A model generated the notes under the pieces. That model searched no databases. It was not told the origin of the DNA and worked only from the letters and a program-made list of their open reading frames with translations. This document shows positions 1 to 13,817 of a stretch of DNA of 13,817 bases, piece after piece. A program made the position numbers and the translations under genes. Source of the DNA: a virus (lineage: Duplodnaviria > Heunggongvirae > Uroviricota > Caudoviricetes); the IMG/VR virus record IMGVR_UViG_2531839482_000006. One strand, 5' to 3'. Each line of letters starts with the position of its first letter. Positions within the stretch are counted from its first letter, which is position 1.

Positions 1-1284
1 TTACTTCTTCGCCTCTGCAACCACTTTACTACCCACGCCGCGGTTATTGTATTCCCACATGCGGTTGTAGTTAGTGTCATTCAGATTGCGCTGTATTTCG
101 TCGTTATCATCTACGCTGCCGGTATTACCCGCAAACGGACGATTAGAGATCACCGCATCGGCCCACGGTTTAGCCGTGTTAAAACCTTCGTTGATGGCGC
201 TATCACGGATCACCACCTGACCGTTGGTATTGGCATCAACATCCAGCGAGCGGCCCAGTTGCGCCACACCATCACCGAAAGCATTGAAACGGCTGTTTAC
301 GGCGAGGAAACCGTAGTAAATGTTGGACAGCGTAGCCGGTGCAAACACATACGCTTCTTGCTGAGTACGTGAGTTCACCACGCGGAATTCGGTGTTATCG
401 AACACCACTGCGCCGCGACCAGAAACGATATCCACATCCCCTTCAATGTAGCTGTTGGTCACCAGCGTACGCGGCTGACGATTCGTTTCCAGACGGTTCT
501 GCACACCGCTATTGGTGACAAAGAAGGTGTTCTGACGACCGAGAATGTTAACGTTGTTAATCTGTACCTGGTCACCATCAGTACGCAGTGCCACCGCCGG
601 ATGGTTACCTGCATCTACGCTATCGCCCAGCGTGTTTTCGATGGTCAGATTTTGCAGTTGCAGGCCATTGTTTTGTGACCAGAAGACCGCAGAGCAGAGA
701 ACACCGATACTGTCGCTGCGTTTGCTCTGGCAGCTATCGTACATATACCACGCTGGTTTACCTGGCATATATTTGCCGCGCGGGTTGACGTCGTGACGCC
801 AGTCGGCAGGGCTCATGCCACCATCAAGGGAAAGCCCAATCTTCACATCAATCGGTTTTTCACCTGTACCGTACAGAGTAATTCCACCCGGAGCGGCAGG
901 GACATATACCGTTCCCTGATACTCACCAGGCATCACGGCAATATACTGGCGCTTGTTGGTACGCTTGATAATTGCCGCATCTACCGCCGCCTGAATCGTG
1001 GTATGCGTTACACCTTGAGTGCCCGCCGGGCCGACAACAAAGTCAGGTTGCGCAGGCAGGGTAATCGGGGAAGGATTCCACGCTGCTGCACCTGGTGTCA
1101 GGGATGCAAAATAGTGTTGAGCATCGAAATTCTGCGCTTCTTTTGCCGACAGAATCGGGCGAGAAGAGGTACCAGGCGCGGTTTGATCAGAAGGACGTTG
1201 ATCGGGCGGGGTTGAGCTACAGGCGGTCAGCGTCACGCCAAAAGCCAATGCCAGCGCCAGACGGGAAACTGAAAATGTGTTCAC
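1..1284 (-). CDS. ybhC: YbhC, putative outer-membrane lipoprotein of the pectinesterase / acyl-CoA thioesterase family (host gene flanking attB-lambda)
   Basis: Complete 427-aa ORF with stop at 1-3; N-terminal signal peptide with lipobox-like LTAC; recognised from memory as the E. coli gene bordering the lambda attachment site; sits immediately outside the att core. Confidence 0.8.
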   Translation of the reverse strand: MNTFSVSRLALALAFGVTLTACSSTPPDQRPSDQTAPGTSSRPILSAKEAQNFDAQHYFASLTPGAAAWNPSPITLPAQPDFVVGPAGTQGVTHTTIQAAVDAAIIKRTNKRQYIAVMPGEYQGTVYVPAAPGGITLYGTGEKPIDVKIGLSLDGGMSPADWRHDVNPRGKYMPGKPAWYMYDSCQSKRSDSIGVLCSAVFWSQNNGLQLQNLTIENTLGDSVDAGNHPAVALRTDGDQVQINNVNILGRQNTFFVTNSGVQNRLETNRQPRTLVTNSYIEGDVDIVSGRGAVVFDNTEFRVVNSRTQQEAYVFAPATLSNIYYGFLAVNSRFNAFGDGVAQLGRSLDVDANTNGQVVIRDSAINEGFNTAKPWADAVISNRPFAGNTGSVDDNDEIQRNLNDTNYNRMWEYNNRGVGSKVVAEAKK

Positions 1285-1330
1285 AGGTTGCTCCGGGCTA
1301 TGAAATAGAAAAATGAATCCGTTGAAGCCT

Positions 1331-1420
1331 GCTTTTTATACTAAGTTGGCATTATAAAAAAGCATTGCTTATCAATTTGTTGCAACGAACAGGTCACTAT
1401 CAGTCAAAATAAAATCATTA
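1331..1420. other. Prophage attL: lambda-type att core followed by the P' arm (Int arm-type and IHF sites)
   Basis: gctttttatactaa at 1331-1344 followed by gttggcattataaaaaagcattgcttatcaatttgttgcaacgaacaggtcactatcagtcaaaataaaatcattatttgatttc, which matches the lambda P' arm as I remember it; host ybhC on one side and int on the other. Confidence 0.85.
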
Positions 1421-2488
1421 TTTGATTTCAATTTTGTCCCACTCCCTGCCTCTGTCATCACGATACTGTGATGCCATGGTGTCCGACTTATGCCCGAGAA
1501 GATGTTGAGCAAATTTATCGCTTATCTGCTTCTCATAGAGTCTTGCAGACAAACTGCGCAACTCGTGAAAGGTTGGCGGATCCCCTTCGAAGGAGAGACC
1601 TGATGCTTTTCGTGCGCGCATAAAATACCTTGATACTGTGCCGGATGAAAGCGGTTCACGACGAGTAGATGCAATTATGGTTTCTCCGCCAAGAATCTTT
1701 TTGCATTTATCAAGTGTTTCCTTCATTGATATCCCGAGAGCATCAACATGCAATGTTGTTGGGATGGCAATTTTTACGCCTGTTTTGCTTTGCTCGACAT
1801 AAAGATATCCATCTACGATATCAGACCACTTCATTTCGCATAAATCACCAACTCGCTGCCCGGTAACAACAGCCAGTTCCATTGCAAGTCTAAGCCAACA
1901 TGGTGATGATTCTGCTGCTTGATAAATTTTCAGGTATTCGTCAGCCGTAAGTCTTGATCTCCTTACCTCTGATTTTGCAGCGCGAGTGGCTGCGACCGGG
2001 TTTGTTGTTATATGGCCTTCAGCTATAGCCTCTCGGAATGCATCGCTCAGTGTTGATCTGATTAACTTGGCTGATGCCGCCTTGCCCTCGTCTATGTATC
2101 CATTGAGCATTGCCGCAATTTCTTTTGTGGTGATGTCTTCAAGTGGAGCATCAGGCAGACCCCTCCTTATTGCTTTAATTTTGCTCATGTAATTTATGAG
2201 TGTCTTCTGCTTGATTCCTCTGCTGGCCAGGATTTTTTCGTAGCGATCAAGCCATGAATGTAACGTAACGGAATTATCACTGTTGATTCTCGCTGTCAGA
2301 GGCTTGTGTTTGTGTCCTGAAAATAACTCAATGTTGGCCTGTATAGCTTCAGTGATTGCGATTCGCCTGTCTCGGCCTAATCCAAACTCTTTACCCGTCC
2401 TTGGGTCCCTGTAGCAGTAATATCCATTGTTTCTTATATAAAGGTTAGGGGGTAAATCCCGGCGCTCATGACTTCGCCTTCTTCCCAT
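1418..2488 (-). CDS. int: Integrase, tyrosine recombinase (lambda Int type)
   Basis: 356-aa ORF; sequence recognised as lambda Int (C-terminal catalytic region ...HELRSLSARLYEKQISDKFAQHLLGHKSDTMASQY...); position next to attL and overlap with xis. Confidence 0.95.
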   Translation of the reverse strand: MGRRRSHERRDLPPNLYIRNNGYYCYRDPRTGKEFGLGRDRRIAITEAIQANIELFSGHKHKPLTARINSDNSVTLHSWLDRYEKILASRGIKQKTLINYMSKIKAIRRGLPDAPLEDITTKEIAAMLNGYIDEGKAASAKLIRSTLSDAFREAIAEGHITTNPVAATRAAKSEVRRSRLTADEYLKIYQAAESSPCWLRLAMELAVVTGQRVGDLCEMKWSDIVDGYLYVEQSKTGVKIAIPTTLHVDALGISMKETLDKCKKILGGETIIASTRREPLSSGTVSRYFMRARKASGLSFEGDPPTFHELRSLSARLYEKQISDKFAQHLLGHKSDTMASQYRDDRGREWDKIEIK

Positions 2489-2684
2489 TTCTGATCCTCT
2501 TCAAAAGGCTACCTGTTACTGGTCGATTTAAGTCAACCTTTACCGCTGATTCGTGGAACAGATACTCTCTTCCATCCTTAACCGGAGGAGGGAATATCCT
2601 GCACTCGCGTACCCATCGACGAACTGTTTCAAGGCTTCTTGGGCGTCGCTGGCGTGCGTTCCACTCCTGAAGTGTCAAGTACAT
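2466..2684 (-). CDS. xis: Excisionase (lambda Xis type)
   Basis: 72-aa ORF MYLTLQEWNARQRRPRSLETVRRWVRECRIFPPP... recognised as lambda Xis; 3' end overlaps the int start as in lambda. Confidence 0.95.
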   Translation of the reverse strand: MYLTLQEWNARQRRPRSLETVRRWVRECRIFPPPVKDGREYLFHESAVKVDLNRPVTGSLLKRIRNGKKAKS

Positions 2685-2710
2685 CGCAAAGTCTCCGCAA
2701 TTACACGCAA

Positions 2711-2731
2711 GAAAAAACCGCCATCAGGCGG
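2711..2731 (-). terminator. Intrinsic terminator-like hairpin (ccgcc/ggcgg stem) followed by a U6 tract on the minus strand, between the 55-aa ORF and xis
   Basis: Minus-strand reading gccgcc-tgat-ggcgg-tttttt; the stop codon of the upstream small ORF lies in the loop. Confidence 0.5.
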
Positions 2732-2891
2732 CTTGGTGTTCTTTCAGTTCTTCAATTCGAATATTGGTTACGTCTGCATGTGCTATCTGCGCCCACAGCA
2801 TCCAGTGGTCATAGCAGTCGCTGATGTTCTCGGCTTCGATAACTCTGTTGAATGGTTCTCCATTCCATTCACCTGTGACTCGGAAGTGCAT
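2724..2891 (-). CDS. Small conserved lambda-type hypothetical protein (55 aa) upstream of xis
   Basis: ORF below the track threshold, translated by hand: MHFRVTGEWNGEPFNRVIEAENISDCYDHWMLWAQIAHADVTNIRIEELKEHQAA; preceded by GGAG 7 nt upstream of the ATG; the surrounding DNA matches lambda as I remember it. Confidence 0.6.
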   Translation of the reverse strand: MHFRVTGEWNGEPFNRVIEAENISDCYDHWMLWAQIAHADVTNIRIEELKEHQAA

Positions 2892-2930
2892 TTATCATCT
2901 CCATAAAACAAACCCCGCCGTAGCGAGTTC

Positions 2931-2961
2931 AGATAAAAGAAATCCTCGTCAGTGCGAGGAT
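2931..2961 (-). terminator. Hairpin (atcctcg/cgaggat) plus T-rich tract on the minus strand at the left boundary of the replaced segment; tL3-like
   Basis: 7-bp perfect inverted repeat at 2942-2961; minus-strand T-rich run from 2931-2941. Confidence 0.35.
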
Positions 2962-3133
2962 GCTGTTCATTGCTGCTATACACTTTTTTGCTCTCAACGT
3001 AAGCGGTAGCCCATTCTGTTGGGTTGGTGCAGTTGCTTTTAGGAAATGCTATTTACCCCTTAAATGTCGGTTGAAAGAGCTAAAATCCATGCAAAAAATT
3101 TACGCAATTTTGTGTATTATTGTGCAGTAAGTA

Positions 3134-3736
3134 ATGAGCTATTTTCTGCGCAAAAAATGGATGGTAAATTTGTCCGGGTCAGGAAAAATTTTATGGGCGC
3201 TAAACATGAAAAAAGATTCGTATCCTTATTTGATTTGCATGACAGTTTCAGGGCTGATCTTTATTTTCCTTTTCTTCTGGTGGCGGGCAGATATCTACAG
3301 GGTCACGTTTCTTAATCAGAGTATATCCCACTATTACATTCTGTTTAGCATGGGAATAGCTTTTCTGTTATCTCTGTTTTGGGTTAAGAAGGGGATAGTA
3401 AAACAAAGCGGCTGGAAGAGTCTGTCAGCATACCTTAAGGGTTATGCAGGGATGTGCATATTTGCTGGATTTTTTCTGATTATACCCCTTACGACACTAA
3501 CTTATTTTTTGCCTGGAGAGACATCGTCTTATGTTGCACCGTATCGGTATACTTCCGGTAGTTCAAAAAGTTGTTCTGGAGCTGAGGTGGATGACCCCGA
3601 TCTACATGAGAATATTCGCATTTGCTATCCGTATGGCAATTATGAGTACGATAATATTATCTATGTTGAAAAGAAAATTAATATATTAGGTGCGGTAGTG
3701 ACATATGCACAGACCGCGCGTGATGATACTGAATGA
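3134..3736 (+). CDS. Hypothetical multi-pass membrane protein with a ~75-aa Cys/Tyr-containing C-terminal domain; cargo gene in the slot lambda uses for ea8.5/ea22
   Basis: 200-aa ORF on the strand opposite all neighbouring genes; visibly AT-rich; three hydrophobic helix-like segments (LICMTVSGLIFIFLFFWW, YYILFSMGIAFLLSLFWV, MCIFAGFFLIIPLTTLTYFL); followed by its own hairpin terminator. Start is uncertain (in-frame ATGs at 3134, 3161, 3206, 3239; none has a strong Shine-Dalgarno). Confidence 0.55.
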   Translation: MSYFLRKKWMVNLSGSGKILWALNMKKDSYPYLICMTVSGLIFIFLFFWWRADIYRVTFLNQSISHYYILFSMGIAFLLSLFWVKKGIVKQSGWKSLSAYLKGYAGMCIFAGFFLIIPLTTLTYFLPGETSSYVAPYRYTSGSSKSCSGAEVDDPDLHENIRICYPYGNYEYDNIIYVEKKINILGAVVTYAQTARDDTE

Positions 3737-3770
3737 TATAGTATATAGCGGGCAAGTTTTAGTTAATTTA

Positions 3771-3800
3771 TCGAGGTAATATAATTTACCTCGACTCGTT
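3771..3800 (+). terminator. Intrinsic terminator-like hairpin downstream of the plus-strand membrane protein gene
   Basis: 9-bp inverted repeat tcgaggtaa / ttacctcga with a 6-nt loop (3771-3794), followed by a T-containing run ctcgtttgtt. Confidence 0.45.
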
Positions 3801-3946
3801 TGTTCTGGTATTAATATTTCGCTTTACGACCGATTTTTATCTGATGATATCATGCGGTTTTCATATACTGACTTACTGTCTTTTCTCCGTTAGCGATTTT
3901 CTCCTGCTCAGCGATGATTTTATCTTTGGCTTCTAGTTAATTTCGC

Positions 3947-4168
3947 TCACTTCGAACCTCTCTGTTTACTGATAAGCTCCAGATCTTGCTGGCAACTGGC
4001 ACAAGTCCGACAACCCTGAACAGCCAGGCGTCTTCGCTCATCTATCGGATCGCCACACTCACAACAATGAGTTGCGGATACAGTCTGGTAGTTCAGACGA
4101 CGCATTTTTATTGCTGTATTGCGCTGTAATTCTTCGATTTCTGATGCCGAATCAATGATGTCTGCCAT
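3947..4168 (-). CDS. TraR/DksA-family C4 zinc-finger protein (lambda orf73-like)
   Basis: 73-aa ORF with CxxC...17...CxxC (CCECGDPIDERRRLAVQGCRTCASC), typical of the TraR/DksA zinc finger; position between the ea22 slot and the orf61-63-60a block as in lambda. Confidence 0.75.
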   Translation of the reverse strand: MADIIDSASEIEELQRNTAIKMRRLNYQTVSATHCCECGDPIDERRRLAVQGCRTCASCQQDLELISKQRGSK

Positions 4169-4266
4169 CTTCCATTAATCCCTGAATTGTTGGTTAATAC
4201 GCTTGAGGATGAATGCGAACAATAAAAAAGGAGCCTGTAGCTCCCTGATGATTTTTCTTTTCATGT

Positions 4267-4548
4267 TCACCGTTCCTTAAAGACGCCGTTTAACATGCCG
4301 ATCGCCAGGCTTAAATGAGTCGGTGTGAATCCCATCAGCGTTACCGTTTCGCGGTGCTTCTTCAGTACGCTACGGCAAATGTCATCGACGTTTTTATCCG
4401 GAAACTGCTGTCTGGCTTTTTTGATTTCAGAATTAGCCTGACGGGCAATGCTGCGAAGGGCGTTTTCTTGCTGAGGTGTCATTGAACAAGCCCCATGTCG
4501 GCAAGCATAAGCACACAGAATATGAAGCCCGCTGCCAGAAAAATGCAT
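4267..4548 (-). CDS. Small hypothetical protein of the lambda orf61 region; start uncertain
   Basis: 93-aa maximal ORF; internal Met at 4482 would give 71 aa; no strong Shine-Dalgarno at either start; I cannot verify the lambda coordinate mapping. Confidence 0.45.
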   Translation of the reverse strand: MHFSGSGLHILCAYACRHGACSMTPQQENALRSIARQANSEIKKARQQFPDKNVDDICRSVLKKHRETVTLMGFTPTHLSLAIGMLNGVFKER

Positions 4549-4558
4549 TCAGTGGTTG

Positions 4559-4750
4559 TCATACCTGGTCTCTCTCATCTGCTTCTGCTTTCGCCACCAT
4601 CATTTCCAGCTTTTGTGAAAGGGATGCGGCTAACGTATGAAATTCTTCGTCTGTTTCTACTGGTATTGGCACAAACCTGACTCCAATTTGAGCGAGGCTA
4701 TGTGCCATCTCGATACACGTTCTTAACTCAACAGGAGATGCTTTGTGCAT
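4559..4750 (-). CDS. Lambda orf63-like small protein
   Basis: 63-aa ORF at the position and size of lambda orf63, immediately upstream of the orf60a/exo block. Confidence 0.6.
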   Translation of the reverse strand: MHKASPVELRTCIEMAHSLAQIGVRFVPIPVETDEEFHTLAASLSQKLEMMVAKAEADERDQV

Positions 4751-4911
4751 ACAGCCCCCCGTTTATTATTTATCTCCTCAGCCAGCCGCTGTGCTTTCAG
4801 GGGATTTCTGATAACAGAAAGGCCGGGAAATACCCAGCCTCGCTTTGTAACGGAGTAGACGAAAGTGATCGCACCTACCCGGATATTATCGTGAGGATGC
4901 TTCATCGCCAT
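4723..4911 (-). CDS. Lambda orf60a-like small protein
   Basis: 62-aa ORF overlapping the start of exo, as in lambda. Confidence 0.55.
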
Positions 4912-5582
4912 TGCTCCCCAAATACAAAACCAATTTCAGCCAGTGCCTCGTCCATTTTTTCGATGAACTCCGGCACCATCTCGTCAAAACTCGCCATGTA
5001 CTTTTCATCCCGCTCAACCACGACATAATGCAGGCCTTCACGCTTCATACGCGGGTCATAGTTGGCAAAGTACCAGGCATCTTTTCGCGTCACCCACATG
5101 CTGTACTGCACCTGGGCCATGTAAGCCGATTTTATTGCCTCGAAACCACCGAGCCGGAATTTCATGAAATCCCGGGAGGTAAACGGGCATTTCAGTTCAA
5201 GGCCGTTGCCGTCACTGCATAAACCATCGGGAGAGCAGGCGGTGCGCATACTTTCGTCGCGATAGATGATCGGGGATTCAGTAATATTCACGCCGGAAGT
5301 GAATTCAAACAGGGTTCTGGCGTCGTTCTCGTACTGTTTTCCCCAGGCCAGCGCCTTAGCATTAACTTCCGGAGCCACACCGGTGCAAACCTCAGCCAGC
5401 AGGGTGTGGAAGTAGGACATTTTCATGTCAGGCCACTTCTTTCCTGAGCGGGGCTTTGCTATCACGTTGTGAACTTCTGAAGCGGTGATGACGCCGAGCC
5501 GTAATTTGTGCCATGCATCATCCCCCTGTTCGACAGCTCTCACGTCGATCCCGGTACGCTGCAGGATAATGTCCGGTATCAT
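4902..5582 (-). CDS. exo: Lambda exonuclease (Red-alpha), 5'-3' dsDNA exonuclease
   Basis: 226-aa ORF recognised as near-identical to lambda Exo ([50 protein letters not shown]...); overlaps bet. Confidence 0.95.
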
Positions 5583-6364
5583 GCTGCCACCTTCTGCTCA
5601 GTGGCTTTCTGTTTCAGGAATCCAAGAGCTTTCACTGCTTCGGCCTGTGTCAGTTCTGACGATGCGCGAATGTCGCGGCGAAATATCTGGGAACAGAGCG
5701 GCAATAAGTCGTCATCCCATGTTTTATCCAGGGCGATCAGCAGAGTGTTAATCTCCTGCATGGTTTCATCGTTAACCGGAGTGATGTCGCGTTCCGGCTG
5801 ACGTTCTGCAGTGTATGCGGTATTTTCGACAATGCGCTCGGCTTCATCCTTGTCATAGATACCAGCAAATCCGAAGGCGAGACGGGCACACTGAATCATA
5901 GCTTTATGCCGTAACATCCGTTTGGGATGCGACTGCCACGGCCCCGTGATTTCTCTGCCTTCGCGAGTTTTGAATGGTTCGCGGCGGCATTCATCCATCC
6001 ACTCGGTAACGCAGATCGGATGATTACGGTCCTTGCGGTAAATCCGGCATGTACATGATTCATTGTCCTGCTCAAAGTCCATGCCATCAAATTGCTGGTT
6101 TTCATTGATGATACGGGACCAGCCATCAACGCCCACCACCGGAACGATGCCGTTCTGCTTGTCAGGGAAGGCGTAAATTTCTTTCGTCCACGGATTAAGG
6201 CCGTACTGGTTGGCGACGATCAACAATGCGATGAACTGCGCATCGCTGGCATCACCTTTAAATGCCGTCTGGCGAAGAGTGGTGATCAGTTCCTGTGGGT
6301 CGACAGAATCCATGCCGACACGTTCAGCCAGCTTCCCAGCCAGCGTTGCGAGTGCTGTACTCAT
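5579..6364 (-). CDS. bet: Lambda Bet (Red-beta) single-strand annealing protein
   Basis: 261-aa ORF recognised as lambda Beta ([59 protein letters not shown]...). Confidence 0.95.
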
Positions 6365-6369
6365 CCGTT

Positions 6370-6786
6370 TTATACCTCTGAATCAATATCAACCTGGTGG
6401 TGAGCAATGGTTTCAACCATGTACCGGATGTGTTCTGCTATGCGCTCCTGAAACTCAACATCGTCATCAAACGCACGGGTAATGGCTTTTTTGCTGGCCC
6501 CGTGGCGTTGCAAATGATCGATGCATAGCGATTCAAACAGGTGCTGGGGCAGGCCTTTTTCCATGTCGTCTGCCAGTTCTGCCTCTTTCTCTTCACGGGC
6601 GATCTGCTGGTAGTGACGCGTCCAGCTCTGAGCCTCAAGACGATCCTGAATGTAATAAGCGTTCATGGCTGAACTCCTGAAATAGCTGTGAAAATATCGC
6701 CCGCGAAATGCCGGGCTGATTAGGAAAACAGGAAAGGGGGTTAGTGAATGCTTTTGCTTGATCTCAGTTTCAGTATTAATATCCAT
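6370..6786 (-). CDS. gam: Lambda Gam, RecBCD inhibitor
   Basis: 138-aa ORF whose C-terminal 98 aa ([60 protein letters not shown]...) match lambda Gam. Confidence 0.9.
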
Positions 6787-6884
6787 TTTTTATAAGCGTC
6801 GACGGCCTCACGAAACATCTTTTCATCGCCAATAAAAGTGGCGATAGTGAATTTAGTCTGGATAGCCATAAGTGTTTGATCCAT
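6741..6884 (-). CDS. kil: Lambda Kil (host cell-division inhibitor), 47 aa
   Basis: Internal start of the 89-aa track ORF at the ATG at 6884: [47 protein letters not shown]; overlaps gam and cIII as in lambda. Confidence 0.8.
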
Positions 6885-7017
6885 TTTTTGGGACTCCTGG
6901 CTGATTAAGTATGTCGATAAGGCGTTTCCATCCGTCACGTAATTTACGGGTGATTCGTTCAAGTAAAGATTCGGAAGGGCAGCCAGCAACAGGCCACCCT
7001 GCAATGGCATATTGCAT
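6853..7017 (-). CDS. cIII: Lambda CIII (inhibitor of FtsH-mediated CII degradation), 54 aa
   Basis: Hand translation from the ATG at 7017 gives [54 protein letters not shown] with stop at 6853-6855; below the ORF-track size threshold. Confidence 0.9.
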   Translation of the reverse strand: MQYAIAGWPVAGCPSESLLERITRKLRDGWKRLIDILNQPGVPKNGSNTYGYPD

Positions 7018-7089
7018 GGTGTGCTCCTTATTTATACATAACGAAAAACGCCTCGAGTGAAGCGTTATTGGTATGCGGTAACGCCGCGC

Positions 7090-7458
7090 TCAGGCGGCTT
7101 TGATAGTCATATCATCTGAATCAAATATTCCTGATGTATCGATATCGGTAATTCTTATTCCTTCGCTACCATCCATTGGAGGCCATCCTTCCTGACCATT
7201 TCCATCATTCCAGTCGAACTCACACACAACACCATATGCATTTAAGTCGCTTGAAATTGCTATAAGCAGAGCATGTTGCGCCAGCATGATTAATACAGCA
7301 TTTAATACAGAGCCGTGTTTATTGAGTCGGTATTCAGAGTCTGACCAGAAATTATTAATCTGGTGAAGTTTTTCCTCTGTCATTAAGTCATGGTCGATTT
7401 CAATTTCTATTGATGCTTTCCAGTCGTAATCAATGATGTATTTTTTGATGTTTGACAT
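7090..7458 (-). CDS. ea10: Lambda Ea10 (early-left protein, reported ssDNA-binding)
   Basis: 122-aa ORF MSNIKKYIIDYDWKASIEIEIDHDLMTEEKLHQINNFWSDSEYRLNKHGS... recognised as lambda ea10. Confidence 0.85.
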   Translation of the reverse strand: MSNIKKYIIDYDWKASIEIEIDHDLMTEEKLHQINNFWSDSEYRLNKHGSVLNAVLIMLAQHALLIAISSDLNAYGVVCEFDWNDGNGQEGWPPMDGSEGIRITDIDTSGIFDSDDMTIKAA

Positions 7459-7621
7459 CTATTCATATCCTCATAGATAAAAAATCGCCTTCACACTGGA
7501 GGGCAAAGAAGATTTCCAATAATCAGAACAAGTCGGCTCCTGTTTAGTTACGAGCGACATTGCTCCGTGTATTCACTCGTTGGAATGAATACACAGTGCA
7601 GTGTTTATTCTGTTGTTTATG

Positions 7622-7649
7622 CCAAAAATAAAGGCCGACTATGCGGCCT
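7622..7649 (-). terminator. Intrinsic terminator for the inserted membrane-protein gene
   Basis: Minus-strand aggccg-catagt-cggcct (6-bp GC-rich stem) followed directly by uuauuuuugg; lies 5 nt downstream of the CDS stop. Confidence 0.65.
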
Positions 7650-7653
7650 GAAA

Positions 7654-8103
7654 TTACTTAACCAATGATGCTGCATATTCGATAAGGTGAAGCTTTGGGG
7701 CCAGCCAAATTTTTAACCAAGTCATATTGGTTACTACACCAATAATAAAAATCCCCCACAGAGTCAAAACTCCAACCAATGGCATGATAAGAAGATTAAT
7801 ATCACCTTTGCTATCCCAAACCATTGTCGGCCTGTATTTGGGATTTCCTTTCTCCCATGAATATCCTTCATCACCGATTTTACCTGTCTCAACTCTTTGG
7901 CACTGCTTCTTCATAAACCAGAAAACCAGTGGGATTGTTAGAATGGCCATTAATGTTTTAATCAGACTGTCAACCATATTCCATAGCAGCAACTGATGAA
8001 CAACATCAGGAATCTGTGCCTGGCTAAATGAAACAGCCGCGTCTATTCCATTACTGGCTTTTTGCAGTAGTTCTACGAGAATCTTGTTTGCTTGTTCTTC
8101 CAT
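7654..8103 (-). CDS. Hypothetical two-helix membrane protein (149 aa) in an inserted cassette; candidate superinfection-exclusion or abortive-infection effector
   Basis: Complete ORF with a strong RBS (AAGGTGA before the ATG at 8103); soluble N-terminal ~45 aa then two hydrophobic helices (LIKTLMAILTIPLVFWFM, INLLIMPLVGVLTLWGIFIIGVV); own terminator; flanked by a 14-bp direct repeat; no lambda gene corresponds. Confidence 0.7.
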   Translation of the reverse strand: MEEQANKILVELLQKASNGIDAAVSFSQAQIPDVVHQLLLWNMVDSLIKTLMAILTIPLVFWFMKKQCQRVETGKIGDEGYSWEKGNPKYRPTMVWDSKGDINLLIMPLVGVLTLWGIFIIGVVTNMTWLKIWLAPKLHLIEYAASLVK

Positions 8104-8161
8104 ATATCACCTTGATTGTAATAAGCATGAAATTATTTACGGACAAAAATAAAGGCCACCA

Positions 8162-8259
8162 TCAGGCAGCCTTGTAGTTCTGTTTACCAAGTTCTCTGGC
8201 AATCATTGTCGTCGTTCGTATTGTCTACACCATTGATTCTTATCAATAGTCGTAGTCAT
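8162..8259 (-). pseudogene. ral: ral (restriction alleviation) remnant with an internal out-of-frame deletion
   Basis: From the ATG at 8259 the frame reads MTTTIDKNQWC (lambda Ral N-terminus) then RQYERRQ-stop; a second frame reads RTTTMIARELGKQNYKAA-stop (lambda Ral C-terminus); the middle ~37 codons are missing. Confidence 0.7.
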
Positions 8260-8329
8260 ACGGATAGTCCTGGTATTGTTCCATCACATCCTGAGGATGA
8301 TCTTCGAACTCTTCAAATTCTTCTTCCAT
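8243..8329 (-). CDS. Lambda orf28-like acidic peptide (28 aa)
   Basis: Hand translation MEEEFEEFEDHPQDVMEQYQDYPYDYDY with GAGGTGA RBS; overlaps the ral start as in lambda. Confidence 0.55.
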   Translation of the reverse strand: MEEEFEEFEDHPQDVMEQYQDYPYDYDY

Positions 8330-8387
8330 ATCTCACCTCAAATAAGTGGTTTGCTGCCTAATTTCATTTTCTGGCGACCAACACAAG

Positions 8388-8660
8388 TCATCTTGCTGTC
8401 AGTTGTTTGGATTTCCGGTAGCCTGCCGCGTAAAGAGCTACGTTTGGAAGACAAGTTGAGCCTTCATATTTTCTGGTCAGCGTTGTCAGTGTTATTACTT
8501 CTGCTCTCATTGCTGGTTTGCGCTTGCATTGCAAGACCACTCGTGAAGGGGTTGGCCTGTGTAGCTTGTCGGAGCTGATCGCCTTCTGACTTTGCAGATT
8601 TGCGCGACGAGCTCTACGGCGAGAAGCTGCGGTGCCTTTAAATTCTGTTTTTCTGGACAT
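8388..8660 (-). CDS. N: N-type transcription antiterminator, not lambda N; 933W/P22 gp24-like C-terminus
   Basis: 90-aa protein from the Met at 8660 (GGGAGG RBS 6 nt upstream); arginine-rich motif GTAASRRRARRANLQSQK near the N-terminus; C-terminus ...CLPNVALYAAGYRKSKQLTAR resembles the Stx-phage/P22 antiterminator ends as I remember them; cognate nutL upstream. Confidence 0.75.
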   Translation of the reverse strand: MSRKTEFKGTAASRRRARRANLQSQKAISSDKLHRPTPSRVVLQCKRKPAMRAEVITLTTLTRKYEGSTCLPNVALYAAGYRKSKQLTAR

Positions 8661-8758
8661 AGATTCCTCCCGAATAAACTTTGGCGATGCAATCTCGAAG
8701 CTCCTCCTGAGACGGTTGCTTCGGCATTGCATCCCACAGCTCATGTGGTTGGGTGATC

Positions 8759-8806
8759 TGGCTTTTCAGCCACGTAGTCGAGAGTTCGACGTTGTTTAAA
8801 GAGCCT
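8759..8806 (-). promoter_or_regulatory. nutL: boxA-like GGCTCTTTAAACAA and boxB-like hairpin TGGCTGAAAAGCCA (minus-strand sense)
   Basis: boxA-like at 8793-8806 and boxB stem-loop at 8759-8772 in the N leader, in the correct 5'-boxA-boxB-3' order for leftward transcription; same GAAAA loop as the nutR candidate. Confidence 0.55.
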
Positions 8807-8850
8807 GCCAGTCTGTTCCGTTTGGCTTCCAGCGTCCTGCTGACGGTTAA

Positions 8851-8879
8851 ATAGTACGATATGTACTTTATTTGGTCAA
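8851..8879 (-). promoter_or_regulatory. pL-like promoter with overlapping operator dyad (oL)
   Basis: Minus-strand TTGACC (-35), 17-nt spacer, TACTAT (-10); the spacer contains the dyad AGTACGATATGTACT (8853-8867). Confidence 0.5.
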
Positions 8880-9064
8880 TACGATTTGTTCTAAAATGGG
8901 GTGATTTTTTATAACACTTTGTATTTAATAGTGTTGTTTTTTAGCGTGGGTGTATCGCCTCGGCGATGTAAGGAGAGATCAGAATTGCGTGGTTTAGTGA
9001 GTTGTATCTATTTATTTTTCAATAAATACATTTGGTTATGTGTCTTTAGGTGGGGGCGTGAGGC

Positions 9065-9090
9065 AAAGAAAACCCGGCGCTGAGGCCGGG
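9065..9090. terminator. Bidirectional intrinsic terminator at the end of the cI operon (lambda tImm-like)
   Basis: cccggc-gctgag-gccggg hairpin (9073-9090) flanked by aaagaaaa on one side and tttt on the other; lies directly after the last gene of the cI operon. Confidence 0.7.
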
Positions 9091-9092
9091 TT

Positions 9093-9377
9093 TTAGCTAA
9101 TGATTTGGAATCCTATATCCTCAAGCGTTGCGTCACCTCTGCATAACGCATGAAAGTGACGAGCTTTCAGTCCAGCTTGCTTAGCCATGGATTTTATTAA
9201 ATCTCTGGAGAATGGGGCGTGATGCTTATCAACTGTAACCACCCATTTTCCTTTACTGTTCTTGAGAACCCACTGTTCGTGAGAGGTTCCTGTTTTAGGT
9301 TTCATTTCAAACCCCATTTTCTTAAGTCCCCTGATTACCTCGTCGTATTTCAAAGGAGTAAGCTTTTTCAAGAACAT
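9093..9377 (-). CDS. HicA-family (YcfA-like) putative mRNA-interferase toxin with a ~30-aa C-terminal extension
   Basis: 94-aa ORF; HicA-like motifs read by eye: GF...TGTSHEQW...KWVVTVDKHH...LIKSMAKQAGL; start 11 nt after the stop of the upstream partner gene; followed directly by the terminator. Confidence 0.6.
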   Translation of the reverse strand: MFLKKLTPLKYDEVIRGLKKMGFEMKPKTGTSHEQWVLKNSKGKWVVTVDKHHAPFSRDLIKSMAKQAGLKARHFHALCRGDATLEDIGFQIIS

Positions 9378-9388
9378 GTAATGTAACC

Positions 9389-9685
9389 CTAAGCATGAGC
9401 ATCACAAGGCTCAGCAAAGAGTTTTGCTTCACCTCGTTTTCTGACAAAAACCTGAAATGCAATTACCCAATACTTAAGCCACATAGATAAAGGTGCTTTC
9501 CGACTTAGTAGTTGTTTTGCATATTCCGGCTCTGATAGCGCTTCAGTGAAAAAATCTTTAATCTGCTCATCCAGTTTGTTTACAGCTTCTTTCATAGTAT
9601 CTGCTTGCGCTGCCAATGACAGGTCTAAACATGCAGCTACGTAAACGCCGTTCTGCTGGTAGGCCATGCAACGTAAGGTTTTCAT
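9389..9685 (-). CDS. HicB-like (UPF0150-fold) putative antitoxin, no recognisable C-terminal DNA-binding domain
   Basis: 98-aa ORF with GAGGAG RBS 7 nt upstream; N-terminal region GVYVAACLDLSLAAQADTMKEAVNKLDEQIKDF resembles the HicB N-domain pattern; tightly coupled to the HicA-like gene. Confidence 0.5.
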   Translation of the reverse strand: MKTLRCMAYQQNGVYVAACLDLSLAAQADTMKEAVNKLDEQIKDFFTEALSEPEYAKQLLSRKAPLSMWLKYWVIAFQVFVRKRGEAKLFAEPCDAHA

Positions 9686-9857
9686 TTTATCTCTCCTCAG
9701 AAGCTCTCATGTAGGAGCTTAAGTGAAGTTTACCCTATAGGTAATTTTAGACAACCCCAAAATACCTATATTTTGTAAATGTCAATACATTAGCAGCGAA
9801 TACCTTCCAACTTATCCACAAGCCAGAGATTGATAGCTTAAAAAACAAACAGAGAAA

Positions 9858-10511
9858 TTACCCAAACGTCTCTTCTGGCCACTGGCTGGCGATAACTTTC
9901 CCCACAACGGAACAACTCTCATTGCATGGGATCATTGGATATTGCGGGTTTAGTGGCTGTAGAAACACCTGACCGCTATCCCTGATCAGTTTCTTGAAGG
10001 TAAACTCATCACCACCAAGTCTGGCTATGCAGAAATCACCTGGCTCAACAGCCTGCTCAGGGTCAACCAGAATTAACATCCCGTCAGGAAAACTAGGTTT
10101 GGAACCTGTTGGGGCGGTCATCGAGTTACCTTCAACCTCAAGCCAGAATGCAGAGTCACTGGCTTTTTTGGTTGTGCTTACCAATCTCTCCGCATCGCCT
10201 TTGGTAAAGGTTCTGAGTTCTGGAGAGAACATCCCAGCCTGAACATGAGAAAAAACAGGGTACTCATATTGTTTTTTAACTGGGGCCGATGAGTATTCGC
10301 CAACAGGTGAAAATGTCCCGTCGTGGTTGAATGATATGTTATCAATACCAAGGTATTTAAACACCACACCAATATCACTAAGAGATGGATGACGAGATCC
10401 GCGCAACCAGTGTCCAATTCCACCCTGCGTCATACCTAGCTCTTCGGCTAACTTCTCTTGAGTTATGCCGAGCTCTTTCATTCTGGATCTAGCCAGTTCA
10501 TACCATTTCAT
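9858..10511 (-). CDS. cI: CI-type repressor: non-lambda N-terminal HTH domain fused to a lambda-like C-terminal LexA/S24 autocleavage domain
   Basis: C-terminal ~135 aa match lambda CI ([28 protein letters not shown]...GNSMTAPTG...[46 protein letters not shown]) including the Ala-Gly cleavage site; N-terminal ~80 aa ([38 protein letters not shown]...) is unrelated. Start chosen at the Met at 10511 (AAGGA 7 nt upstream); the maximal ORF extends to 10559. Confidence 0.85.
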
Positions 10512-10551
10512 TTTCATGTCCTTATTATTACGCTCTGTATTGCAACCATCC

Positions 10552-10601
10552 ATGCACAATGTGTATTTTTGCTTGCACTAAAAAAGTACATATTGTATTT
10601 T
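10552..10601. promoter_or_regulatory. oR / pR / pRM region: operator-like dyads and a plausible pR
   Basis: Near-palindromes ATGCACAATGTGTAT (10552-10566) and GTACATATTGTA (10586-10597), resembling the oL dyad; pR candidate TTGCAC (10573-10578), 17 nt, TATTTT (10596-10601) upstream of cro. Confidence 0.45.
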
Positions 10602-10628
10602 TTTCTTCATGGTTACTATGGAGGGCAT

Positions 10629-10844
10629 ATGAGCAACCTACGAAAATATCGAGAGTCACTGAATATCTCTCAAACAACACTTGCTAAGGCAGTTGGATGC
10701 ACACAGGGAGCTATCGGACATTGGGAATCTGGTCGTCGCTTCCCAGACCTTAAAACATGCCGTGCTCTTGTTGCGTGTCTAAACAAGTTAGGCGCAAAAG
10801 TAAGTCTTGATGACGTGTTCCCGCCGGAGCACAAAGCCGCTTAA
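10629..10844 (+). CDS. cro: Cro-type repressor (HTH), non-lambda specificity
   Basis: 71-aa protein from the ATG at 10629 (GGAGGG upstream); HTH QTTLAKAVGCTQGAIGHWESG; divergent from cI across the operator region. The upstream in-frame extension in the track has no support. Confidence 0.75.
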   Translation: MSNLRKYRESLNISQTTLAKAVGCTQGAIGHWESGRRFPDLKTCRALVACLNKLGAKVSLDDVFPPEHKAA

Positions 10845-10854
10845 TAAGCGGAGC

Positions 10855-10900
10855 CGCTCTTTGTAACAACGGACATTCGTCCTACGTCGCTGAAAAGCGA
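10855..10900 (+). promoter_or_regulatory. nutR: boxA-like CGCTCTTTGTAACAA and boxB-like hairpin TCGCTGAAAAGCGA
   Basis: boxA-like motif right after the cro stop, and a stem-loop with a GAAAA loop at 10887-10900, mirroring the nutL candidate. Confidence 0.5.
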
Positions 10901-10985
10901 GCCCCAAGATATCTGACCAACTAAGGCCATATGCGTTTCCACGCATACCTTTCAACTAACTATTCACTATTGGAAATCTTAAGAA

Positions 10986-11282
10986 ATGGAACAAACAAAT
11001 TACAGCAAACTATCACAGCGCGACGTTGATCGCGCAGAAACAGATTTACTTATCAACCTGTCAACGCTTACTCAGCGCGGTCTGGCAAAGATGATTGGCT
11101 GTCATGAATCGAAGATAAGCAGAACAGACTGGAGGTTTATAGCTTCGGTCTTGTGTGCTTTTGGCATGGCATCAGACCTCAGTCCGATTAGCAGAGCTTT
11201 TAAGTATGCGCTTGATGAAATCACCAATAAAAAACGCCCGGCGGCAACCGAGCGTTCTGAACAAATCCAGATGGAGTTCTGA
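10986..11282 (+). CDS. cII: CII-type transcriptional activator: hybrid with a non-lambda N-terminal part and lambda-identical C-terminus
   Basis: 98-aa ORF; C-terminal ...TNKKRPAATERSEQIQMEF equals the lambda CII end; HTH LTQRGLAKMIGCHESKISR; the N-terminal ~75 aa differ from lambda. Confidence 0.8.
   Translation: MEQTNYSKLSQRDVDRAETDLLINLSTLTQRGLAKMIGCHESKISRTDWRFIASVLCAFGMASDLSPISRAFKYALDEITNKKRPAATERSEQIQMEF

Positions 11283-13272: not shown

Positions 13273-13817
<545 letters not shown>

Follow-up and report, generated by a model that had tools for sequence, protein, structure and literature searches.

What is the single gene that runs against the early left (pL) operon of a lambda-like prophage, in the place where lambda has ea8.5 and ea22, and what could its product do? 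The question is raised by a 13,817-nucleotide stretch of DNA (virus record IMGVR_UViG_2531839482_000006; hereafter the window), in which a lambda-like prophage lies at the lambda attachment site. We found that the core of the replaced segment (3075-3826) is a single-gene, moron-type cassette on the strand opposite to pL. We hold with high confidence to this anatomy, that of an apparently autonomous cassette coding for a predicted inner-membrane protein with a periplasmic beta-barrel. Its function is proposed more cautiously. A prophage-expressed, envelope-level block on genome entry by superinfecting phages (exclusion or defence) is a serious possibility, which we regard as nearly evenly balanced between right and wrong.

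The limits of the replaced segment were set by blastn. Positions 1333-2961 of the window aligned with lambda 27727-29355 (97.9% identity) and positions 3935-7642 with lambda 30380-34087 (97.5%); the 973 bp in between (2962-3934) substitute for lambda 29356-30379, which is ea8.5 together with all of ea22 except its first 16 nt. These alignment edges bear out a preliminary description made from the letters alone, in which lambda-like sequence was said to stop near 2961 and to resume at about 3934. It was also correct that ea22 is reduced to five codons, VSEIN, and a stop (GTG AGC GAA ATT AAC TAG, 3950-3933, minus strand). Neither an intact ea8.5 nor an intact ea22 was found at the locus; what is left is this stub and ~28 out-of-frame codons of another ea22 allele. 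Consistent with the reported AT-richness, the G+C content of 2962-3933 is 38.3%, compared to a mean of 46.5% (standard deviation 4.1) for the 957 other 972-bp intervals of the prophage part, none of which is as low. The shift is real yet modest (~2 standard deviations), and the region 7200-8400 is nearly as low in G+C. The sole long open reading frame (ORF) of the segment is on the plus strand (3134-3736), and the ORF listing held no minus-strand ORF of at least 30 amino acids (aa) spanning it, as expected for a single protein antisense to the pL operon.

The segment is no novelty of the present DNA. It is 98.6% identical to that of classical phage 434, 99.7% to that of mEp332 and 98.7% to that of phage 2B8, and we conclude that 2962-3934 represents, at the lambda ea8.5-ea22 interval, the allele of the phage 434 type. 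The same DNA (98.3-99.7%) is present as CPT_434_35/36 of phage 434 (OL657226 27086-27862), as the partial 'ORF-22+' of M60848 and as ECs0804 of O157:H7 Sakai, in each case at the same place, between orf55/t-L4 and orf73. The t-L4 annotated at 2292-2322 of M60848 corresponds to window 2935-2965. The feature is a moron of the ordinary kind that had been annotated in phage 434 before. The genome paper of that phage assigns no function to the gene and only remarks that the morons differ from those of lambda (PMC9119081). Phage 434 has an extra 436 bp (ORF114; 2315-2750 of its locus L001) between xis and orf55 that is absent from both the window (2712-2715) and lambda. Therefore, the window is not simply a phage 434 prophage.

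Existing annotations of the gene disagree: it is a 188-aa, TTG-start protein with a 56-aa upstream ORF in phage 434, a 200-aa protein in RefSeq and a different frame in M60848. None of them assigns a function and all differ from the model arrived at here. Homologues of down to 42% identity, from Salmonella, Klebsiella, Enterobacter, Cedecea and Citrobacter, are 169-181 aa long and all start at Met25 of the 200-aa ORF. We also compared variable sites among near-identical copies (434, mEp332, O157 and 05-3629). By first, second and third codon position, these sites were distributed 0/3/9 in 3206-3733 and 5/2/0 in the 24-codon extension upstream of ATG 3206, where strain 05-3629 has an in-frame stop in addition. 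The ratio of nonsynonymous to synonymous substitution rates (dN/dS) with respect to the P2-type homologues is 0.09-0.17, the C-terminal domain being the most constrained part (0.05-0.10). Because homologue starts, codon-position variation and dN/dS agree, we assign the coding sequence to ATG 3206 through 3736 (176 aa) and take it as the sole real gene of the segment.

The preliminary description had given 200 aa and an ambiguous start. The length has to be corrected, and the start can be regarded as settled, as the position of a conserved -10 element (see below) adds to the homologue starts and codon-position variation. The 200-aa reading (ATG 3134) was rejected on the above grounds; moreover, the conserved -10 element lies within the extension, and transcription is predicted to begin only after ATG 3134 has been passed, which excludes this reading. 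The TTG 3170 start of the phage 434 annotation was rejected likewise. A chance frame devoid of homologues, named at the outset as an outcome that would overturn the description, is ruled out by the same homologues, dN/dS values and variable sites.

The 56-aa ORF (2960-3130), which is annotated as a membrane protein in phage 434 and mEp332, was not accepted as a gene. Its variable sites are spread 7/3/4 over the codon positions, one strain has a 1-nt indel in it, and it lies outside the shared cassette. It varies at 10.6 sites per 100 bp, compared to 2.3 in the real coding sequence, and the family scans returned no match for it. This removes a spurious ORF; the gene model and the cassette limits are fixed as well.

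The cassette limits came from comparison with P2-like prophages. By blastn, 3075-3826 matched an E. coli P2-like prophage (locus L017) with 76% identity over 755 bp (E = 1e-159), and Salmonella P2-like loci with 71%. The homology to L017 extends 130 bp 5' of the ATG and 90 bp 3' of the stop, and blastn found the unit absent from lambda. Within the upstream part, an extended -10 element, TGnTAAnTT, precedes the ATG by 44-48 nt in phage 434, the window, the E. coli and two Salmonella P2-like lineages and Cedecea, in surroundings that have diverged; transcription is predicted to start near 3177. Downstream of the gene is the hairpin terminator that had been described for it. The 79-nt stretch around this hairpin has a folding energy of -18.7 kcal/mol (z = -3.07 against shuffles), and an alignment read by eye indicated that the P2-type cassette retains the hairpin with one compensatory A-T to G-C change and one mismatch. 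The cassette therefore has the marks of a moron: a terminator of its own, a G+C content unlike that of its neighbours and absence from lambda. With this organization it would be expressed from the repressed prophage.

Upstream of the putative promoter are three TTGTGCA-like repeats, to which a regulator may bind; neither they nor the rest of the upstream region could be matched to the site of a known regulator. The annotators of phage 434 marked here an overlapping TTGY-N6-TTGY as a match to the CII consensus. We did not adopt this annotation because the motif belongs to the three repeats, which are conserved in P2-like phages, and to our knowledge P2-like phages encode no CII. A 26-nt direct repeat (GAGCTA...GCAAAAAAT; 3074-3099 and 3133-3158, 73% identical, 59 bp apart) was also observed upstream of the membrane gene. 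The segment had no Rfam match at E up to 1 that would point to a small RNA.

The autonomy of the cassette bears on one alternative, namely that the gene serves phage development, for instance the lysis-lysogeny decision, and stands in for the displaced functions of ea8.5 and ea22. It does sit in the exo-xis region, whose genes affect lysogenisation and induction (PMC7093339), and lambda ea8.5 and ea22 occupy the same pL-operon interval, between t-L4 and orf73. However, those genes lie on the strand opposite to the membrane gene and encode unrelated proteins, and the latter has nothing in common with Ea22 or Ea8.5. A gene directed against pL, with its own promoter motif and terminator, and present also in P2-like phages and bacterial chromosomes, is hardly what this alternative would lead one to expect, and we consider it very improbable.

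We then considered the protein. Hydropathy places transmembrane helices at about residues 5-29, 38-61 and 69-101, followed by a C-terminal domain (102-176), in accordance with the three helices and the ~75-aa Cys/Tyr-containing domain noted earlier. Homologue alignments (A1-A3) showed that Cys123 and Cys140, both in the C-terminal domain, are the only invariant cysteines. Loop 2 has five K+R and no D+E, while the C-terminal domain has six K+R and 12 D+E and is net acidic. The charge distribution (positive-inside), the invariant C-terminal cysteines and the AlphaFold2 model together lead us to predict an inner-membrane protein with a cytoplasmic N-terminus and a periplasmic C-terminus. The AlphaFold2 confidence score (pLDDT) was 84 for the whole chain and 92.8 when the C-terminal domain was modelled alone. 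In the model, the C-terminal 75 residues form a small five-stranded, OB/SH3-like beta-barrel, and a sixth short strand lies in periplasmic loop 1; we assume that this strand packs onto the barrel, to which the first periplasmic loop would then contribute. Cys123 and Cys140 probably form a disulfide. Conserved positions in the alignment are Cys, Gly, Pro and hydrophobic residues, and a catalytic-looking set is absent; the domain therefore looks like a binding module rather than an enzyme. A lipoprotein or a cleaved signal peptide was considered and rejected, as the sequence lacks a lipobox and the homologues do not keep Cys11, whereas they do keep helix 1 as a membrane-spanning segment.

Family scans placed the protein in one family of hypothetical proteins. 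The only PHROGs match at E up to 1 was PHROG 1416, of unknown function (hmmscan; E = 6.9e-51, residues 113-200 of the 200-aa ORF). Pfam gave only a sub-threshold match to DUF6057 (E = 0.48), NCBIfam gave none, and a BFVD fold search returned nothing at E of 0.001 or below (best E = 0.0099). A 3074-aa repeat lipoprotein (P0121), which appeared in a profile search with E = 1e-7 over nine stretches, was judged to be a repeat-inflated match to short Cys-containing motifs. The features discussed here are collected in Table 1.

Table 1. Features of the replaced segment and of its surroundings in the window
Feature	Coordinates	Strand	Basis or remark
Mobile cassette (promoter region, coding sequence, terminator)	3075-3826	plus	common to P2-like gpQ-gpA hotspot cassettes
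Three TTGTGCA-like repeats, ~10 bp spacing, 5' of promoter	3099-3126	plus	kept in E. coli and Salmonella P2-type cassettes
Putative sigma-70 promoter: -35-like TTTTCT (3142-3147), 17-bp spacer to -10 hexamer, extended -10 TGgTAAATT (3162-3170)	3142-3170	plus	
Coding sequence, 176-aa predicted inner-membrane protein	3206-3736	plus	homologue starts, dN/dS, codon-position variation, AlphaFold2, hydropathy/charge
Intrinsic-terminator hairpin: 9-bp stem, 6-nt loop, moderately T-rich tail	3771-3794	plus	terminator scan
Left filler, non-coding, holds most of the 56-aa ORF (2960-3130, plus)	2962-3074	.	not common to P2-type cassettes
Remnant of 3' coiled-coil part of a non-lambda ea22-like gene, LEAKDKIIAEQEKIANGEKTVSQYMKTA*	3850-3936	minus	out of frame with stub, no start codon
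ea22 stub, GTG and four codons (VSEIN), then TAG	3933-3950	minus	GTG overlaps orf73 stop
pL operon terminator hairpin (t-L4 of phage 434 record)	2942-2961	minus	terminator scan; last lambda-homologous sequence, left edge of replaced segment
int	1418-2488	minus	
xis	2466-2684	minus	
orf55	2724-2891	minus	
orf73, TraR-like	3947-4168	minus	
exo	4902-5582	minus	

Homologues of the gene (P0039, P0043, P0048, P0051, P0054 and P0064) were located between the portal gene gpQ and the replication gene gpA of P2/186-like prophages, convergent with gpA, and in some of these loci the membrane gene is the sole cargo. The gpQ-gpA locus is the site of old and tin in P2 and a documented hotspot of anti-phage systems (Rousset et al. 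2022, PMC9122126). Table S5B of that study lists a 'System #4' with no Pfam family, three transmembrane helices and 470 occurrences (PMC9122126). BLASTP aligned its protein with ours at 52% identity (168 aa, E = 9e-57), and the family accounts for 470 of the 18,150 E. coli P2-like hotspot loci. System #4 and PHROG 1416 share with our protein the architecture of three helices and a C-terminal domain, as well as the single-gene cassette. They differ in location: System #4 occupies the P2 cos-proximal hotspot, whereas the copy in the window is in the lambda-type early-left accessory region, between xis/orf55 and orf73.

When a tree was built by neighbour joining, the 434-type protein and the E. 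coli P2-like copy came out as sisters within the phage-borne clade. As it is nested among the P2-like hotspot copies, the cassette probably came from such a hotspot into a lambda-like phage. The horizontal acquisition suggested in the preliminary description is thus supported by the occurrence of the same cassette in a P2-like prophage and in a KplE1/CPS-53 remnant. This does not hold for the whole segment, since 3850-3936 is the leftover 3' end of an ea22 allele. That part is 77% identical in nucleotide sequence to the coiled-coil part of an Ead/Ea22-like gene (Pfam PF13935), which in L017 adjoins the membrane gene in convergent orientation, and the ea22 stub matches the 5' end of the L017 gene as well as that of lambda. 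From these two resemblances, the 434-type arrangement is best read as the membrane-gene cassette together with an ea22-like gene that has an internal deletion and is out of frame. Recombination may plausibly have taken place at the 5' end, encoding MSEIN, which ea22-like genes have in common, and this is a plausible route of transfer.

Two further observations concern ea22-like genes. In L017 itself (6622-7004, minus strand), the Ead/Ea22-like gene is split into two frames, 111-aa and 50-aa ORFs that correspond to the N- and C-terminal parts of PF13935; this is either a frameshifted pseudogene or a sequencing error. Table S5A of Rousset et al. has Ead_Ea22 genes repeatedly next to the partition genes StbA/StbB in P2 hotspots.

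The gene is common. The segment was found in 916 of 5426 complete E. coli genomes (17%), always in the chromosome. In O157:H7 Sakai it belongs to the defective prophage Sp3, and many Shigella sonnei entries carry the gene. Strain 05-3629 has the same cassette in the KplE1/CPS-53 prophage remnant, adjoining torI. The family as a whole comprises 61 clusters among 1.84 billion representative proteins and is confined to Enterobacteriaceae; all members are annotated as hypothetical. Among 185,579 species genomes, ten loci were found, one of them on an E. coli-like contig that contaminates a metagenome-assembled genome. This 3.5-kb contig (L023), binned as 'Candidatus Nanosynbacter', carries the membrane gene (99% identical) along with lambda-type exo and orf73, and almost certainly entered the bin from an E. 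coli prophage. A gene present in 17% of complete E. coli genomes, in O157:H7 Sp3 and in classical phage 434 has thus stayed uncharacterised.

We favour exclusion or defence as the function because of the orientation of the gene, its own promoter motif and terminator, and its presence in two prophage accessory loci, one of which is a documented defence hotspot. The proposed sequence of events is as follows. In a lysogen, where pL is repressed, the cassette would be transcribed from its own promoter and its product inserted into the inner membrane. There the periplasmic domain would attach to some conserved component of the envelope, for example an entry factor of the inner membrane comparable to ManYZ or PtsG, or a part of the incoming phage that reaches the periplasm. 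Such binding would stop genome entry of superinfecting phages and amount to superinfection exclusion. DNA entry of phage 434 and lambda depends on ManYZ in the inner membrane, and the known exclusion proteins acting at this step are small, encoded by prophages and located in that membrane (PMC6832061). The constrained periplasmic domain fits a conserved host target.

A parallel exists in the HK97 gp15 moron, likewise a small inner-membrane protein from an autonomous cassette of a lambdoid prophage, with a proposed action on DNA entry. Gp15 is short, has one membrane helix and is encoded among tail genes; we found no sequence or profile similarity between it and our protein. Its role in superinfection exclusion is proven (Cumby et al. 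2012, 2015, as cited in PMC6832061), whereas that of the present protein is proposed from comparison. P2 old and tin, lambda SieB and RexB, P22 SieA and T4 Imm are also accessory exclusion genes of prophages or phages, and old and tin share the P2 locus of the homologues. SieA, Imm and RexB are inner-membrane proteins. None of the six is homologous to the membrane protein as judged by PHROGs, Pfam and PADLOC, and we know of none among them with a C-terminal periplasmic beta-barrel and two invariant cysteines.

A membrane protein in anti-phage hotspots could also act after entry, as an abortive-infection effector that is inert until infection and then depolarises or permeabilises the inner membrane, in the manner of RexB or the transmembrane effectors of CBASS, retron and Thoeris systems. 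The multi-pass topology would suit this role, and transmembrane proteins of known systems are thought to be suicide effectors (Rousset et al., PMC9122126). However, there is no sensor partner: the cassette holds no second real ORF, and several P2-like hotspots have the gene on its own. A folded periplasmic domain is predicted for over 40% of the protein, which is an odd site for the sensing of a cytoplasmic cue. The protein had no match to PADLOC effectors, and stable, vertically inherited chromosomal orthologues exist. We therefore regard an abortive-infection effector as unlikely.

Several observations weigh against exclusion or defence as such. No family of PADLOC-DB v2.0.0 was matched at E up to 1, and PADLOC, PHROGs and Pfam together revealed no similarity to any characterised exclusion or defence protein. 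The motifs of System #4 are absent from the tables of tested systems in Rousset et al. (PMC9122126); the family has therefore been catalogued but not assayed. The P2 hotspot also holds cargo other than defence genes, namely partition systems and the cdt toxin (PMC9122126). The dN/dS of the periplasmic domain (0.05-0.10) carries no arms-race signature. In addition, six species (E. cloacae, E. mori, E. quasihormaechei, E. intestinihominis, E. vonholyi and E. sp. RIT637) have a syntenic chromosomal orthologue. In these Enterobacter loci the flanks are 78-92% identical and the G+C content of the gene equals that of the flanks, which suggests a cellular role independent of prophages. In the neighbour-joining tree, the Enterobacter orthologues form their own clade apart from the phage-borne copies.

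These orthologues bring in the main alternative, an envelope or host-fitness factor (lysogenic conversion) without any role in phage defence, whose periplasmic domain would bind a conserved host envelope protein or ligand. It might modulate a sensor kinase or transporter as MgrB or MzrA do, or be an orphan immunity protein against a periplasm-acting bacteriocin or a secreted effector. Besides the six syntenic, composition-matched Enterobacter genes, chromosomal copies without phage markers in Citrobacter, Pseudescherichia and Klebsiella sp. R390 speak for it, as do the strong purifying selection on the periplasmic domain and the virulence and maintenance cargo of the P2 hotspot. The retention of the gene in defective prophages (O157 Sp3 and the KplE1 remnant) also fits, but a defence gene is equally expected to persist there. 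On the other hand, all phage-borne copies are in a variable accessory locus enriched for anti-phage genes, and no toxin, sensor or transporter gene is conserved beside the membrane gene. A host factor is accordingly a possibility to be taken seriously, although we would not call it probable. The defence idea of the preliminary description thus gains from the location of seven homologue lineages in the gpQ-gpA hotspot, while the chromosomal orthologues keep a non-defence envelope role open.

Going further along the line of exclusion, the protein may found a single-gene family of envelope-level exclusion proteins that shuttle between the P2-like gpQ-gpA locus and the lambda ea region. In such a family, an OB-like periplasmic domain, probably held by a disulfide, would prevent genome entry through its binding to a conserved entry factor of the host's inner membrane or periplasm, and the Enterobacter orthologues would be domesticated or ancestral members. 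We put this forward as a conjecture, and a somewhat doubtful one. If the protein does act in exclusion, a single-gene mechanism at the envelope would be added to those known, and the exchange of cargo between accessory hotspots would be documented for two temperate-phage lineages that are unrelated. Should phages instead have captured a host envelope factor, its cellular role could be approached through the Enterobacter orthologues.

The surroundings of the Enterobacter orthologues were also noted. In this locus, syntenic in the six species (L007, L025-L028 and L032), the orthologue is convergent with a gene for a HAMP-GGDEF membrane protein. In E. mori, a LysR-family regulator gene of the same orientation precedes it at a distance of 16 bp, and the two may be co-transcribed.

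Some other regions of the prophage also depart from lambda. In the pL operon, a 149-aa ORF with hydrophobic stretches and no Pfam match (7654-8103, minus strand) lies in a non-lambda segment (~7643-8130), flanked by a DUF2528 gene at the ea10 position (7090-7458) and a ral-like region; it is a further uncharacterised accessory gene. At the other end, lambda homology stops at 13358, just past ren, and 13425-13718 (minus strand) codes for the last 97 residues of an IstB/IS21 helper ATPase (PF01695, E = 7e-43), so that the nin region is interrupted by an element of the IS21 family. A gene pair (9093-9685, minus strand) follows the cI-like repressor gene (9858-10559) directly on its downstream side, where lambda has rexA/rexB. 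One gene encodes a HicA toxin of 94 aa (PF07927, E = 8e-11); the other, upstream of it, encodes a 98-aa protein without a Pfam match, which is presumably a HicB-type antitoxin. The immunity region (7643-11220) is of neither the lambda nor the phage 434 type and matches phage 2B8 at 98.7%; within the repressor, only the S24 peptidase half is lambda cI-like (93.6% over 9862-10268).

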